Assembly (NCBI RefSeq): GCF_054482595.1
Contig: NZ_CM137008.1
Direction: 5' to 3' (one strand)
Length of the DNA stretch: 64,000 bases
Shown: one piece after another, positions 16,673-24,440 of the stretch
Position numbering within the stretch: the first letter of the stretch is position 1
Layout of the letters: each line of letters starts with the position of its first letter
Position numbers and translations under genes: made by a program
The notes under the pieces: model-generated
The model's database searches: none
What the model was told of the DNA's origin: nothing
The model's input: the letters and a program-made list of their open reading frames with translations, nothing else

Positions 16673-17827
16673 ATGGTGAAATCATTCGCTATCGGTTACA
16701 CGGTACGCGATGTCGCCAAAGGCAGCTGGATCGACGAATCCACGGTCACGCTACCGAAAGCGCCGCCGCTTAACACCCTGCCTCGGGCGACCAAAGTGCC
16801 GGAGCCACTGCCGCCGCAGGAAGATTACACCTTTGAAGGTTACCGCAACGCCGACGGCAGCGTGGGCACCAAAAACCTGTTGGGTATTACCACCAGCGTG
16901 CACTACATGGCAGACGTTGAGGACTACGTGGTTAAAATTATCGAACGCGACCTGCTGCCGAAATACCCGAGCATCGACGGCGTGGTCGACTTGAACCACC
17001 TCTACGGCTGTGGCGTAGCGATTAATGTACCGGCCGCCGTGGTGCCAATTCGCACCATCCATAATATTGCGCTGAACCCAAACTTCGGTGGCGAAGTGAT
17101 GGTGGTGGGCATGCAGTGCGGTGGCAGCGACGCGTTCTCCGGCGTTACCACTAACCCCGCTGTCGGCTACGACTCTGACCTGCTGGTGCGCTGCGGCGCA
17201 ACGGTGATGTTCTCCGAAGTCACTGAAGTACGCGACGCCATTCATCTGTTAACGCCACGCGCCATCAATGAAGAAGTGGGCAGGCGTCTGCTCGAAGAGA
17301 TGGCCTGATACGATAACTATCCCGATATGGGCAAAACCGACCGCAGCGCCAACCCTTCGCCGGGCAACAAAAAGGGCGGCCTCGCCAACGTGGTAAAGAA
17401 AGCACTCGGCTCCATTGCTAAATCGGGTAAAACCGCAATTGTTGAAGTGCTGTCGCCCGGTCAACACCCGACTAAACGCGGATTAATTTACGCCGCGACG
17501 CCAGCCAGCGATTTTGTCTGTGGCACGCAACAGGTGGCTTCGGGTATCACCGTGCAAGTGTTTACGACCGGCCGTGGTACGACGTACGGCCTGATGGCGG
17601 TACCCGTCATTAAAATGGCGACCCGCACCGGGCTGGCGAACCACTGGTTTGATTTAATGGATATTAACGCAGGCACTATCGCTACCGGCGAAGAGACCAT
17701 TGAAGAGGTGGGCTGGAAGTTGTTCCACTTTATTCTCGACGTCGCCAGCGGGAAGAAGAAAACTTTCTCGGATCAATGGGGATTGCATAACCAGCTGGCA
17801 GTGTTTAACCCGGCACCGGTGGCCTGA
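16673..17827 (+). pseudogene. garD: galactarate dehydratase, N-terminally truncated with internal deletion and frame break
   Basis: ORFs 16673..17308 and 17327..17827 together match GarD from about residue 74 to the C-terminus (...[12 protein letters not shown]), but a central block is missing and the frame breaks near 17308. Confidence 0.8.
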
Positions 17828-17889
17828 TATTCTCTTCATACATTAAGTTGTATTATGCCCGATAACGCTTGTTTATCGGGCATAGTGAA

Positions 17890-18714
17890 TCACAGCGAAG
17901 ACGCGAGCTCCCCGACCAGAATCACTTCAACCCCAGCCTTTCGCAAGCCTTCCAGACTATCCGCAGGAATGCCTTCATCAACAATGATCATGTCGATACG
18001 TTTAGTATCAATGATCTTATGTAAACTGGAACGATTGAACTTACTGGAATCGGTGACCACGATGATCCGTTCCGCAACTTCGCACATCCGGCGGTTTAAA
18101 CGGGCTTCATCTTCATTATGCGTGCTGACGCCGCGCTCCAGATCGATCGCATCTACACCAAGAAACAGCATATCGAAGTGGTAATTTTGCAGCGATTGCT
18201 CAGCCTGATCGCCGTAAAAAGATTGCGACTGACGGCGCAAATGCCCGCCGGTCATCAGCAGCTCAACGCCTTCCGCTTCCAGCAACGCATTAGCCACGTT
18301 CATACCGTTGGTCATCGCAATTACGTCAGTGTGCTTGCGCATCAGACGAGCAATCTCAAAAGTGGTGGTCCCGGAATCGAGGAGCACCCGATGACCTGGC
18401 TGAATCAACTCAACGGCAGCTTTCGCAACGCTGCGTTTCATCGCGGTGTTCAGTGCGCTTTTGTCTTCCACTGATGGCTCGACTGACGGCGTCGTGCTAT
18501 CGCAGATCAACGCGCCACCATAGGCACGCACAGCGATCCTCTGCTTTTCCAGAAACGCCAGATCGTTGCGGATCGTCACAGTAGATACGCCATACAATGC
18601 CGACAGATCGTTAACCTGCACACTCCCTTGCTGTCGCAGACGCTGAATGATCTGTTCTCGTCGCTCGCTGGTGCCTGTCACTCGCTTCTCACCTGAAGCG
18701 TCGGTATTACTCAT
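17890..18714 (-). CDS. agaR: DeoR family repressor of N-acetylgalactosamine/galactosamine genes
   Basis: 274 aa recognised as AgaR ([26 protein letters not shown]...). Confidence 0.85.
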
Positions 18715-18896
18715 AGTAAGTCCTTTCGTAAAACTTTCGTTTCATTTCGTTTTGCCTATTAACGCCTTTCTATTAAGCAAATGCAAGCCCACCTTGCCCA
18801 TTGGCGCAAGCTACTCTCGTTTCACTGACTTTCATTATGTTTCTTTTGTGAATCGGATCAGAAAACCATTATCTTTCGTTTTATTTTTATCTCACC

Positions 18897-19301
18897 ATGA
18901 CGCAGTATGAACTGAAACAAAACGAAAGATTAATATCGCAGCAATCTGAACTGGAGAGGAAAGTGAAACATCTGACAGAAATGGTGAGGCAGTACAAAGC
19001 GGGCAAAACAAATGGAATTTATGCCGTTTGTTTTGCCCGCTTTGTGCTGCATGGGGCGAGCGATGTGCCGGATGAGTATGTTCGTCGCACCATTGGGCCA
19101 GGCGTCTGCAAAGTCAACGTTGCAACCGAGTTGAAGATCGCCTTCTCTGACGCCATCAAAGCTTGGTTTGCTGAAAATCAGCAGAGCAACGATCCGTGCT
19201 TTTACATGCGGGTTGGCATGGACGCCATGAAAGAGGTGGTCAGAAGCAAAATCGCCGTCTGCGGCTCGGCAAATCGATTACGGCTACCGGCGGAGGCCTG
19301 A
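18897..19301 (+). pseudogene. kbaZ'-'kbaY deletion fusion (5' end of kbaZ joined in frame to the 3' end of the tagatose-bisphosphate aldolase gene)
   Basis: Product reads [23 protein letters not shown] (KbaZ N-terminus, probable GTG start near 18963) then [15 protein letters not shown]...CGSANR (KbaY/GatY C-terminal region); junction about 19035-19045; the intervening aga genes are absent. Confidence 0.75.
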
Positions 19302-22173: not shown

Positions 22174-22186
22174 GGATCTTACCCCG

Positions 22187-24076
22187 ATGAAGAAAGTGCT
22201 CACTCTCTCACTGCTGGCTCTCTGCGTTTCTCATGGTGCAGCGGCAGCAAACTACGCGCTCAATAACGACAATATTGCCCTCTTGTTTGATGATACAAAC
22301 TCAACGGTCGTGGTGAAGGACAACAAGGCTAACCATCCGCTCACGCCGCAGGAGTTGTTCTTTCTGACGCTGCCGGATGAGAGTAAAATCCACACCGTGG
22401 ATTTCAAAATCAAGCACGTCGAAAAGCAGGATAACGCGATTATCATCGACTTTACGCACCCGGATTTTAACGTCACGGTGAAGCTGAACCTAGTGAAGGG
22501 AAAATACGCCAACATCGGCTACACCATTGCCGCCGTGGGGCAGCCGCGCGACGTCGCTAAAATCACCTTCTTCCCGACCCAAAAACAGTCTCAGGCTCCT
22601 TACGTAGACGGCGCAATCAATAGCTCTCCGATCGTTGCGGACTCGTTCTTTATCCTGCCGGATAAACCGATCGTGAATACCTACGCCTATGAAGCCACCA
22701 CCAATCTCAACGTAGAGCTGAAAACGCCGATTCAGCCAGAGGCGCCGGTCAGCTTTACTACTTGGTTCGGCACTTTCCCGGAAACCAGCCAGCTGCGCCG
22801 CAGCGTGAACCAGTTTATTAATGACGTACGTCCACGCCCATACAAGCCTTATCTGCACTACAACAGCTGGATGGATATCGGCTTTTTCACTCCCTACACT
22901 GAACAGGATGTGCTGGGGCGTATGGACGAGTGGAACAAGGAGTTCATTACGGGCCGCGGCGTGGCGCTGGACGCCTTCCTGCTGGATGATGGCTGGGACG
23001 ATCTGACCGGACGCTGGCTATTTGGCACGGCATTCAGAAACGGTTTTAGCAAAGTACGGGAGAAAGCCGACAGCCTGCACAGCTCCGTTGGGCTATGGCT
23101 TTCACCGTGGGGTGGCTACAACAAACCGCGCGACGTTCGCGTTTCGCATGCAAAAGAGTATGGGTTCGAAACCGTGGACGGCAAACTGGCGCTGTCGGGA
23201 GCGAACTACTTTAAAAACTTCAATGAGCGGATCATCAAGCTTATCAAAAACGAGCACATCACCTCGTTTAAACTCGACGGGATGGGTAACGCCAGTTCGC
23301 ATATCAAAGGCAGCTCGTTCGCCTCAGATTTCGATGCATCAATCGCCCTGCTGCACAATATGCGCAGCGCAACTCCGAATCTGTTTATCAACCTGACCAC
23401 CGGCACCGACGCCAGCCCGTCCTGGCTGTTCTACGCTGATTCTATCTGGCGTCAGGGAGATGACATCAACCTGTATGGTTCCGGTACGCCGGTGCAGCAG
23501 TGGATGACCTACCGCGATGCCGAGACGTACCGCTCCATTGTCCGTAAAGGCCCTCTGTTCCCGCTGAACTCGCTGATGTACCACGGGATAGTCAGCGCCG
23601 AGAATGCCTATTACGGGTTAGAGAAGGTGCAAACGGACAGCGACTTTGCCGATCAGGTCTGGAGCTACTTCGCGACCGGCACCCAGCTGCAGGAGCTGTA
23701 TATTACCCCGTCCATGCTGAACAAGGTGAAGTGGGATACGCTGGCGAAGGCTGCAAAATGGTCGAAGGAAAATGCCAGCGTGCTGGTTGATACCCACTGG
23801 ATTGGCGGCGACCCAACGGCGCTTGCCGTGTACGGCTGGGCATCCTGGAGCAAAGACAAAGCCATTCTCGGTTTGCGCAACCCATCGGATAAGCCACAGA
23901 CCTACTATCTGGATTTGGCGAAGGATTTCGAAATACCGACAGGAGACGCGGCGCAGTTTAGTCTGAAAGCGGTATACGGCAGCAATAAAACCGTGCCCGT
24001 TGAGTATAAAAACGCGACGGTGATTACGTTGCAGCCGCTGGAAACGCTGGTGTTTGAGGCGGTGCCCGTTAACTAA
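22187..24076 (+). CDS. secreted protein, putative glycoside hydrolase (DDGW-motif, clan GH-D-like)
   Basis: About 630 aa from MKKVLTLSLLALCVSHGAAA (Sec-type signal peptide); motifs YNSWMD, LLDDGWDD, FKLDGMGN resemble alpha-galactosidase-type hydrolases; family assignment tentative. Confidence 0.55.
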   Translation: MKKVLTLSLLALCVSHGAAAANYALNNDNIALLFDDTNSTVVVKDNKANHPLTPQELFFLTLPDESKIHTVDFKIKHVEKQDNAIIIDFTHPDFNVTVKLNLVKGKYANIGYTIAAVGQPRDVAKITFFPTQKQSQAPYVDGAINSSPIVADSFFILPDKPIVNTYAYEATTNLNVELKTPIQPEAPVSFTTWFGTFPETSQLRRSVNQFINDVRPRPYKPYLHYNSWMDIGFFTPYTEQDVLGRMDEWNKEFITGRGVALDAFLLDDGWDDLTGRWLFGTAFRNGFSKVREKADSLHSSVGLWLSPWGGYNKPRDVRVSHAKEYGFETVDGKLALSGANYFKNFNERIIKLIKNEHITSFKLDGMGNASSHIKGSSFASDFDASIALLHNMRSATPNLFINLTTGTDASPSWLFYADSIWRQGDDINLYGSGTPVQQWMTYRDAETYRSIVRKGPLFPLNSLMYHGIVSAENAYYGLEKVQTDSDFADQVWSYFATGTQLQELYITPSMLNKVKWDTLAKAAKWSKENASVLVDTHWIGGDPTALAVYGWASWSKDKAILGLRNPSDKPQTYYLDLAKDFEIPTGDAAQFSLKAVYGSNKTVPVEYKNATVITLQPLETLVFEAVPVN

Positions 24077-24109
24077 ACGCTTGTCCCAATGAGCAGACCG
24101 AGTAAGGCG

Positions 24110-24440
24110 CAAGCGCCACCCGGCAAAACCGGCAGCAGGGGCTTATTCCCCCTGCTTTTCCAGCGCATACTTATACAACGCATTCTTCTTCACTCCGTGG
24201 ATTTCTGCCGCCAACGCCGCCGCTTGCTTCAACGGCAGCTCAGCCTACAACAGCGCCAGCGTACGCAGCGCATTGGCGGGCAGTTCGTCATCCTGGGCTT
24301 TATGGCCTTCAATAATCAGCACCATCTCGCCTTTGCGAGGGTTTTTATCTTCTTTGATCCACGCCAGCAGTTCGCCGACCGACGTGCCGTGGATGGTTCC
24401 CAGGCGGGTGTTCATCACATAACGGTATAGGGCATCATTC
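24110..24440 (-). pseudogene. rsmI: 3' fragment of a 16S rRNA 2'-O-methyltransferase gene with an internal stop
   Basis: Minus-strand translation gives [83 protein letters not shown], matching the RsmI C-terminus with an in-frame TAG; the 5' part is replaced by IS66 sequence. Confidence 0.7.

Follow-up and report, generated by a model that had tools for sequence, protein, structure and literature searches.

The DNA analyzed here is a stretch of 64,000 nucleotides (nt) from contig NZ_CM137008.1 of NCBI RefSeq assembly GCF_054482595.1, referred to below as the window. Positions 16,673 to 24,440 of the window (7,768 bases) carry pieces of the chromosomal garD-aga-rsmI region embedded in a genomic island at the tRNA gene pheV. 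The initial annotation of this segment, made from the sequence alone, listed a truncated garD, an intact agaR, a fusion of kbaZ with kbaY, and a fragment of rsmI next to an IS66 insertion sequence (IS). Every element of that list is present where it was placed, but the list passed over 19,415-24,076, which holds three intact genes. The map drawn from the open reading frame (ORF) listing agrees with the RefSeq annotation of the identical stretch in Escherichia coli GTEN_97 and comprises the following features (foreign-type and Escherichia-type refer to the identity blocks described below).

15,998-16,510, minus strand: ORF of 170 amino acids (aa) with no assigned function, annotated as a hypothetical protein (WP_001167450.1), in island-backbone DNA.
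16,658-17,827, plus strand: garD pseudogene, delimited by alignment to K-12 garD and by a five-way alignment.
17,890-18,714, minus strand: agaR, DeoR-family repressor of the aga operon, intact, 274 aa, matched by NCBIfam profiles and free of stops.
18,715-18,962: divergent agaR/kbaZ regulatory region, in which AgaR-box-like repeats are clustered at 18,734-18,928.
18,963-19,301, plus strand: in-frame kbaZ'-'kbaY fusion ORF, with NCBIfam matches to KbaZ and KbaY.
19,415-20,986, plus strand: malX-like gene, intact, 523 aa, foreign-type, encoding enzyme IICB of a maltose/glucose-family phosphotransferase system (PTS; TIGR02004, 722 bits; cut-off, 632).
20,995-22,173, plus strand: gene for a PatB/MalY-family pyridoxal phosphate-dependent C-S lyase, intact, 392 aa, foreign-type (TIGR04350, 363 bits; cut-off, 340).
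22,187-24,076, plus strand: ast, intact, 629 aa, encoding a secreted protein annotated "enterotoxin" or "alpha-galactosidase" (mechanical ORF start, 22,163).
24,143-24,403, minus strand: 3' remnant of rsmI, 261 bp, foreign-type, approximately the last 86 of 286 codons, 84% identical to K-12 rsmI in alignment.
24,404-26,088, minus strand: truncated ISEc43-like IS66 element, with tnpA and tnpB intact and tnpC cut at nt 788; marked as a pseudogene by the NCBI Prokaryotic Genome Annotation Pipeline (PGAP).

Intact coding sequence makes up 4.7 of the 7.8 kb of the interval. The complete segment is 100.0% identical in at least seven independently finished genomes of human, mink, duck, and chicken origin. 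Of 5,426 complete E. coli genomes, about 310 (312 by one count) have versions at least 99% identical to it, with the same pseudogenes flagged by PGAP. These figures rule out assembly or sequencing error in a single genome as the source of the truncations: genomes finished independently of each other carry an identical segment, and a more distant sister copy in E. coli ABU 83972, described below, has the same nonsense codons. The relic is thus already annotated as pseudogenes in hundreds of RefSeq genomes, and a literature search, in which "agaR" collides with "agar" as a text term, found no paper describing it. Short contigs from metagenome-assembled genomes labeled Collinsella sp. and Lachnospiraceae are 98.7 to 99.6% identical to the segment; these are almost certainly mis-binned E. 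coli DNA.

The segment lies on a pheV-associated genomic island. The tRNA-Phe gene at 59,626-59,701 is pheV: speC and a yqgA-type gene flank it away from the island, a P4-type integrase lies toward the island, and positions 58,169-60,925 are 96% identical to the speC-yqgA-tRNA-Phe-integrase stretch of CFT073.

To place the segment relative to the resident locus, we compared the window with GTEN_97, to which it is 99.99% identical over 44 kb (the sole structural difference over this length is an indel at 35,337-36,106, measuring 768 bp in the window and 564 bp in GTEN_97). GTEN_97 has an intact native locus at 615-633 kb, in the order garPLRK-garD-prlF-yhaV-agaR-kbaZ-agaVWEF-nagA-agaS-kbaY-agaBCDI-rsmI-lpoA, and the island copy at 875-883 kb, about 245 kb away. 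Carrier genomes likewise have two matching places for the garD-agaR part. The initial annotation had offered a degraded second copy on the island as one of two possibilities, and this is what the genomes contain. It had also named the absence of any other copy, together with near-identity to K-12, as grounds for regarding the segment as the native locus; neither was found. The island copy is not the only copy, does not reach approximately 95% identity over its full length, and does not have E. coli gene content. Relative to the native region of E. coli K-12 (garD-prlF-yhaV-agaR-kbaZ-agaVWEA-agaS-kbaY-agaBCDI-yraHIJK-rsmI), the order and orientation of garD, agaR, kbaZ, kbaY, and rsmI are alike, whereas the prlF-yhaV pair, the aga PTS and enzyme genes, agaBCDI, and the yra fimbrial genes are missing. 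Between kbaY and rsmI the island copy instead carries malX-malY-ast, which is absent from the native E. coli loci examined.

Sequence identity to E. coli is not uniform along the segment but falls into the following blocks.

16,721-17,400: garD 5' block, 80 to 82% identical to E. coli.
17,400-19,032: garD 3' end, spacer, agaR, regulatory region, and kbaZ 5' block, 95 to 98.5% identical to E. coli.
19,044-19,301: kbaY 3' block, 77% identical to E. coli.
24,147-24,404: rsmI 3' block, 84% identical to E. coli.

The flanks are thus 77 to 84% identical to E. coli, and the 5' part of garD is 77 to 82% identical when all comparisons are pooled. Sliding identity placed the left switch within garD, which is foreign-type up to about 17,400 and Escherichia-type in its 3' part. 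The Escherichia-type patch (17,400-19,032) consists of the garD 3' end, a spacer without prlF-yhaV, agaR, the agaR-kbaZ regulatory region, and kbaZ codons 1 to 23. Its identity is 95 to 98.5% to K-12, the GTEN_97 native locus, and E. coli AHB22 and 77 to 84% to Enterobacter and Klebsiella; against the K-12 region, the 1.6-kb center as a whole, AgaR operators included, gives 96 to 98.5%, and the regulatory region is 97 to 100% identical to that of K-12. The encoded AgaR scored well above the cut-offs of both profiles that recognize it (NF007316, 569.8 bits against 351; NF040755, 457.5 bits against 260) and differs from K-12 AgaR by three residue changes and a 5-residue C-terminal extension, in agreement with the earlier description of this gene as intact. 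The ratio of nonsynonymous to synonymous divergence (omega) for agaR was 0.10 against K-12 and 0.06 against the GTEN_97 native copy, with synonymous divergence (dS) of 0.05 to 0.09. By these comparisons the patch is an ordinary allele of the E. coli species. Recent gene conversion from the host's own native locus was considered as its source and excluded, since over 17,908-19,032 the patch is nearer to K-12 (98.3%) than to the native locus of GTEN_97 (97.5%). Lacking prlF-yhaV, the patch is unlike nearly all listed native E. coli loci, and its garD-agaR spacer aligns only with the native locus of AHB22. In that strain (NZ_OZ547099.1), the native locus has no prlF-yhaV toxin-antitoxin pair separating garD from agaR, and the AgaR it encodes is the same 274-aa protein; this arrangement may be the ancestral one.

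To determine where the flanks could have come from, we used the "enterotoxin" protein to scan 100,044 species, each represented by one genome; the scan returned 44 enterobacterial, Yersinia, and Serratia loci. Gene maps showed that the order garD-agaR-kbaZ…kbaY-(malX-malY)-"enterotoxin"-rsmI-lpoA belongs to the core chromosome in Enterobacter, Kosakonia, Klebsiella, Raoultella, and Yokenella. Across the 44 species loci, kbaY lay directly upstream of ast or of malX-malY-ast in 41, rsmI lay within 3 kb downstream in 33, and malX-malY stood in between in 8. From the kbaY 3' end into rsmI (19,044-24,404), the window forms one colinear alignment at 86% with Enterobacter cloacae M-7, Enterobacter quasihormaechei, Enterobacter hormaechei, and Enterobacter soli. 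In the aga cluster of the Enterobacter cloacae complex, Yokenella, and relatives, the gene order is identical to that of the right-hand 5.4 kb of the segment, and garD adjoins agaR. All genes of the Enterobacter-type locus are intact and belong to a single-copy core chromosomal region, whereas the island copy is internally deleted and cut at both ends. The center of the island copy is only 77% identical to the Enterobacter-type locus because that center is Escherichia-type. Taken together, these comparisons indicate that the island segment is a collapsed copy of a non-E. coli version of the locus, mostly a xenologous mosaic.

The remnant of garD bears four lesions, which we mapped by alignment to K-12 garD and by a five-way alignment of the window, the sister copy, E. 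coli AHB22, Enterobacter, and Klebsiella. Homology to K-12 garD begins at about nt 176, so that the first ~175 nt (~58 codons) are absent. An 11-bp deletion follows position 16,690, as judged against the sister copy and all orthologs; a 219-bp (73-codon) deletion lies at 17,104/17,105, between paired TGGTGGTGGG repeats, both of which the sister copy retains; and a TGG codon has become TGA at 17,306-17,308. The loss of the 5' end and of a central block, noted from the sequence at the outset, is thereby accounted for. The frame break described alongside them does exist, but it is a nonsense codon and not a frameshift: the ORFs at 16,673-17,308 and 17,327-17,827 are in the same frame, and the sole frameshift in garD is the 11-bp deletion at its extreme 5' edge. 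PGAP calls the remnant a frameshifted UxaA family hydrolase with an internal stop and a missing N terminus. The complete, uninterrupted coding sequence of a functional enzyme is no longer present. At the left junction, garD nt ~176 is joined to island-backbone DNA that is not part of an IS. The 170-aa ORF at 15,998-16,510, for which no NCBIfam match was found, adjoins the garD remnant on its left in both module versions, the ORF of ABU 83972 being frameshifted, and relatives of this backbone DNA and ORF occur at 82 to 85% identity in other E. coli islands and plasmids.

In the fusion ORF, NCBIfam profiles matched residues 23 to 49 to KbaZ 1 to 27 and residues 41 to 128 to KbaY 197 to 284 of 286. 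At the nucleotide level, 18,963-19,031 corresponds to Escherichia-type kbaZ codons 1 to 23 and 19,044-19,301 to the last ~86 codons of a foreign-type kbaY, which is 77% identical to E. coli and 86% identical to Enterobacter; the ~11 nt of the junction itself (19,032-19,043) are of uncertain origin. The joining of the first ~23 codons of kbaZ to the end of kbaY had been correctly recognized from the ORF translation, the kbaY part being ~86 codons long. With 23 codons of kbaZ and ~86 of the 286 codons of kbaY, neither gene is complete enough to specify its enzyme. The initial annotation ascribed the fusion to deletion of the intervening aga genes. Those genes are indeed absent, but a simple deletion within one homogeneous operon does not describe the event, because the junction joins an Escherichia-type kbaZ to a foreign-type kbaY.

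At the right end, the rsmI remnant carries a CAG-to-TAG change at 24,245-24,247 and, with only its 3' part left, does not encode a complete enzyme. The description of this fragment as a stop-containing 3' piece of rsmI abutting a truncated IS66 tnpC was accurate. The IS66 element is 93.5% identical to an intact copy of ISEc43 over the left 1,685 nt, its right end is missing, and the interior of tnpC (nt 788) is joined straight to the interior of rsmI with 1 to 2 nt of microhomology. A second IS66 piece lies at 14,995-15,581. We considered whether this piece and that at 24,404-26,088 are halves of one split element and rejected the idea, as the left piece has no nucleotide match to ISEc43. An IS66 composite transposon was rejected as well: there is no pair of the same element, the right element has no right end, and the left junction does not involve an IS. 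Because neither junction is an IS end and the other nearby IS66 fragment is a different element, the ends of the segment would have arisen by deletion or illegitimate joining rather than by composite transposition.

A second version of the module bears on its history. About 190 genomes other than the carriers above, among them ABU 83972, Nissle 1917, NC101, and NU14, match the right half of the segment at 90 to 95%. In ABU 83972, this sister copy (NC_017631.1 1,101,934-1,123,431) is located in a different island, beside an integrase and dgcT, and its homology to the window starts at window position 15,882. The two copies share the 170-aa left neighbor, the garD TGA, the rsmI TAG, a byte-identical rsmI'/IS66 junction, and the switch at ~17,400, and the PatB-like and "enterotoxin" genes are intact in the sister copy also. 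They differ in their large deletions: the sister copy keeps the 219-bp garD block but has a 242-bp deletion in agaR, its malX is cut to the last 81 nt, and its Escherichia-type kbaZ continues to nt ~291, where it is joined to foreign-type agaS 3' and kbaY 5' sequence. Because the mosaic, both end junctions, and both nonsense codons are common to the two copies while the deletions differ, the former predate the split of the two lineages, and the large internal deletions are independent. In the window, the patch ends on the right at the kbaZ'/'kbaY junction, presumably because the original switch lay within the aga operon and was spanned by a separate deletion in each lineage. These comparisons point to descent of both copies from one ancestral mosaic module that decayed independently in each.

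We then examined the three intact genes between the kbaY and rsmI remnants. The malX-like gene is 87% identical at the nucleotide level to, and colinear with, those of E. cloacae, E. hormaechei, and E. soli, and the PatB/MalY-family gene is 86 to 87% identical to Enterobacter. Between the two module versions, ast has a dS of 0.31 with an omega of 0.10, and the PatB-like gene has an omega of 0.28; both genes are under purifying selection. Both malX and agaR are intact in the window copy and lost in the sister copy. The malX gene of the window was considered as a candidate for the classical "malX PAI marker" (PAI, pathogenicity island) of CFT073; this identity is not claimed, as the marker has been mapped to CFT073 c2013 in the literature, no malX occurs in the first 50 kb of the CFT073 pheV island, and the sister copy in ABU 83972, a close relative of CFT073, has lost malX.

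The "enterotoxin" protein had no Pfam-A match even at an E value of ≤10, no NCBIfam match, and no sequence match in the PDB at an E value of ≤1. Its AlphaFold2 model, built on 29 homologs, had a predicted local distance difference test (pLDDT) score of 90.2, and the top Foldseek matches of the model were a GH36 galactosaminidase from Flavonifractor plautii (E = 1e-25), followed by GH36 alpha-galactosidases. The matches 8x1b, 9awt, 2xn0, and 2yfn had a probability of 1.00, with template modeling (TM) scores of only 0.45 to 0.61. Like the GH36 alpha-galactosidases and the F. plautii alpha-galactosaminidase (8x1b and 9awt; E = 1e-25 to 1e-20), the protein is predicted to consist of an N-terminal beta-domain, a (beta/alpha)8 barrel, and a C-terminal beta-domain. 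In contrast, identity to the solved enzymes is just 11 to 14%, and family sequence profiles fail to recognize the protein, so the predicted likeness to GH36 is at the level of the fold only. Residues D275, D276, G277, W278, D279, and K370-x-D372 are invariant in the 29 homologs down to 34% identity; these may correspond to the DDGW substrate-binding motif and the KxD motif of the catalytic Asp nucleophile in GH36. Homologs appear in databases under names including "YacT" (Yersinia) and "predicted exported alpha-N-acetylgalactosaminidase." The window protein has 53% identity to one from Aeromonas bestiarum that bears the name "enterotoxin"; with the Aeromonas Ast-type enterotoxin it has only the name in common. 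The modeled fold and the position of the gene directly after kbaY suggest that "enterotoxin" may be a historical mislabel of a glycosidase of the aga regulon. A third, unrelated "enterotoxin" pseudogene fragment is present in E. coli SCU-301 (NZ_CP051751.1), 87.5% identical over 0.6 kb and situated beside IS110 debris and the dpdA-dpdK (Dpd) cluster. We considered this match as a possible native E. coli ast locus and rejected it, the fragment being a pseudogene in an unrelated island.

The position of these genes bears on how they might be expressed. In Enterobacter and Kosakonia, ast starts within ~20 to 40 bp of the kbaY stop, which makes it the probable terminal gene of the aga cluster there. 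In the window, the motif MTTTCRTTTYRTTT, written after the published AgaR consensus, has six matches, five of them at 18,734-18,928 (0.67 matches were expected by chance over the whole window). No terminator-like site was found between the kbaY' stop and malX. With the operator cluster intact, the fusion in frame, and no such site before malX, control of malX-malY-"enterotoxin" by AgaR is plausible. The deletion leaves the three genes directly downstream of the AgaR-controlled kbaZ promoter, and by this reasoning they are probably inducible by N-acetylgalactosamine or galactosamine (GalNAc/GalN), as would be expected of their orthologs, which end the aga cluster of other genera.

Together, these results suggest that the interval is a nonfunctional scar together with a still-functional payload, both left by one old capture of a chromosomal garD-aga-(malX-malY-ast)-rsmI locus into mobile island DNA; we put the probability of this reading at roughly 0.8. 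A chromosomal fragment from outside E. coli would have become linked to mobile DNA and hybridized with Escherichia DNA lacking prlF-yhaV, through homologous recombination at points in garD and within the aga operon, either by gene conversion on the island copy or as a hybrid locus before capture. The fragment may have been trapped beside IS66 through deletion. Repeat-mediated or illegitimate deletions and point mutations would then have removed what the native locus supplies (garD, the aga PTS and enzyme genes, and rsmI), while selection would have kept genes that the native E. coli locus lacks, namely, those for the PatB-like lyase and the GH36-like glycosidase, with malX and agaR in addition in the version seen in the window. 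In that version, the kbaZ'-'kbaY deletion would have put the payload directly downstream of the intact AgaR-controlled kbaZ promoter.

Several observations weigh against parts of this reading. Among the 100,044 species representatives, no donor exceeded 87% nucleotide or 92% amino acid identity, values reached in Enterobacter, and the only matches at 98 to 99% were the contigs labeled Collinsella and Lachnospiraceae noted above. PLSDB plasmids contained none closer (the only PLSDB records matched were from E. coli, and several of these were chromosomes entered as plasmids); a search of 5.8 billion proteins listed no cluster above 92% identity among its best 120. "Enterobacter-like" consequently denotes the nearest sampled neighbor only, because no closer donor was found. 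The 5' part of garD is about equally distant (80 to 86%) from E. coli, Enterobacter, and Klebsiella and so need not share the donor of the right flank. The patch is not closest to the host's native locus, and its sequence would fit conversion after capture as well as a hybrid formed before it. Within the payload, the 113-bp spacer between kbaY' and malX could hold a promoter of its own, and malX and agaR are dispensable, both being lost in the sister copy.

In the history most similar to the preferred one, a single unsampled donor with an already mosaic chromosome supplied the entire segment as it stood, and only the decay took place in E. coli. This scenario differs from capture followed by hybridization only in the place of recombination. 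It agrees with a switch point that is common to both island versions, and hence with a mosaic older than their split, and also with a patch that lacks prlF-yhaV and is not closest to the host's native locus. We nevertheless consider it unlikely: no such donor was found among the species representatives, and a match of 95 to 98.5% over 1.6 kb, including noncoding spacers, implies exchange with E. coli at some point. Less probable still is a true paralog, in which the E. coli locus would have been duplicated within the genome long ago and the copy would have diverged where it lies on the island. The garD, agaR, kbaZ, kbaY, and rsmI families do stand in native order around an Escherichia-type center, but divergence jumps from 2 to 5% to 16 to 23% within tens of bases at ~17,400 and at 19,032/19,044, which uniform divergence after a duplication cannot produce. 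In addition, the right flank is nearer to Enterobacter (86 to 87%) than to E. coli (77 to 84%) and has Enterobacter gene content, and prlF-yhaV and agaBCDI are absent. The term "paralogous copy" favored in the initial annotation is thus inaccurate for a segment whose flanks are 77 to 84% identical to the resident locus, whose gene order is not that of E. coli, and which is mostly xenologous.

The remaining proposal, also put forward in the initial annotation, was that IS66-mediated recombination moved the native E. coli garD-aga-rsmI region beside the pheV island, where it then decayed. An IS66 remnant does abut rsmI', and the central 1.6 kb is 95 to 98.5% identical to native E. coli loci. The native locus is, however, intact in the near-identical GTEN_97, which refutes such a move, and carriers have two places matching the region. 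The flanks, at 77 to 84% identity to E. coli, and malX-malY-ast, which the native loci examined lack, are likewise at odds with relocation, and the junction runs from the interior of one gene to the interior of the other and not from an IS end. The chance that relocation is correct is close to nil.

Under the favored reading, capture of a foreign locus into island DNA followed by hybridization and decay, the segment is a normal product of island evolution and requires no new mechanism. Its two independently decayed descendants are together present in ~9% of finished E. coli genomes. The case carries a caution for annotation, in that an apparent "rearranged native locus" would be a hitchhiking fragment of the chromosome of another genus, patched with E. 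coli DNA. Because carriers keep an intact native garD/aga/rsmI set, the pseudogenes are predicted to leave rRNA methylation and growth on galactarate or GalNAc unimpaired. Of greater prospective interest are the preserved PatB-like lyase and GH36-like "enterotoxin" (with malX and agaR here), and since in 41 of 44 species loci the "enterotoxin" gene comes immediately after the aga cluster, its activity is open to a testable prediction. A more speculative proposal, which we regard as doubtful, is that a cassette of AgaR and the kbaZ promoter has been rewired onto the MalX-like PTS, the PatB-like lyase, and a secreted GH36-like alpha-GalNAc/GalN-ase that would harvest host glycans of the mucin or blood group A type. 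The whole would then be a selected island payload, and the widely annotated Ast/YacT family would be the missing extracellular glycosidase of the enterobacterial aga regulon and not a toxin.

Other parts of the pheV island also carry genes that resemble core metabolism. At 3,860-14,746, the window encodes a GntR regulator, an amidohydrolase, a major facilitator superfamily transporter, all of the citrate-lyase genes citCDEFXG, and a second acnB that is complete (865 aa; 12,149-14,746). At ~32,900-43,000 there is a second stretch of K-12-like sugar-acid genes, partly decayed and with IS66 remnants at its bounds. It begins with fragments of a truncated PTS ascorbate-family IIC gene and an epimerase gene, which we take to be sgcC and sgcE, and continues with sgcR, yjhI, yjhH, yjhG, yjhF, and yjhU.

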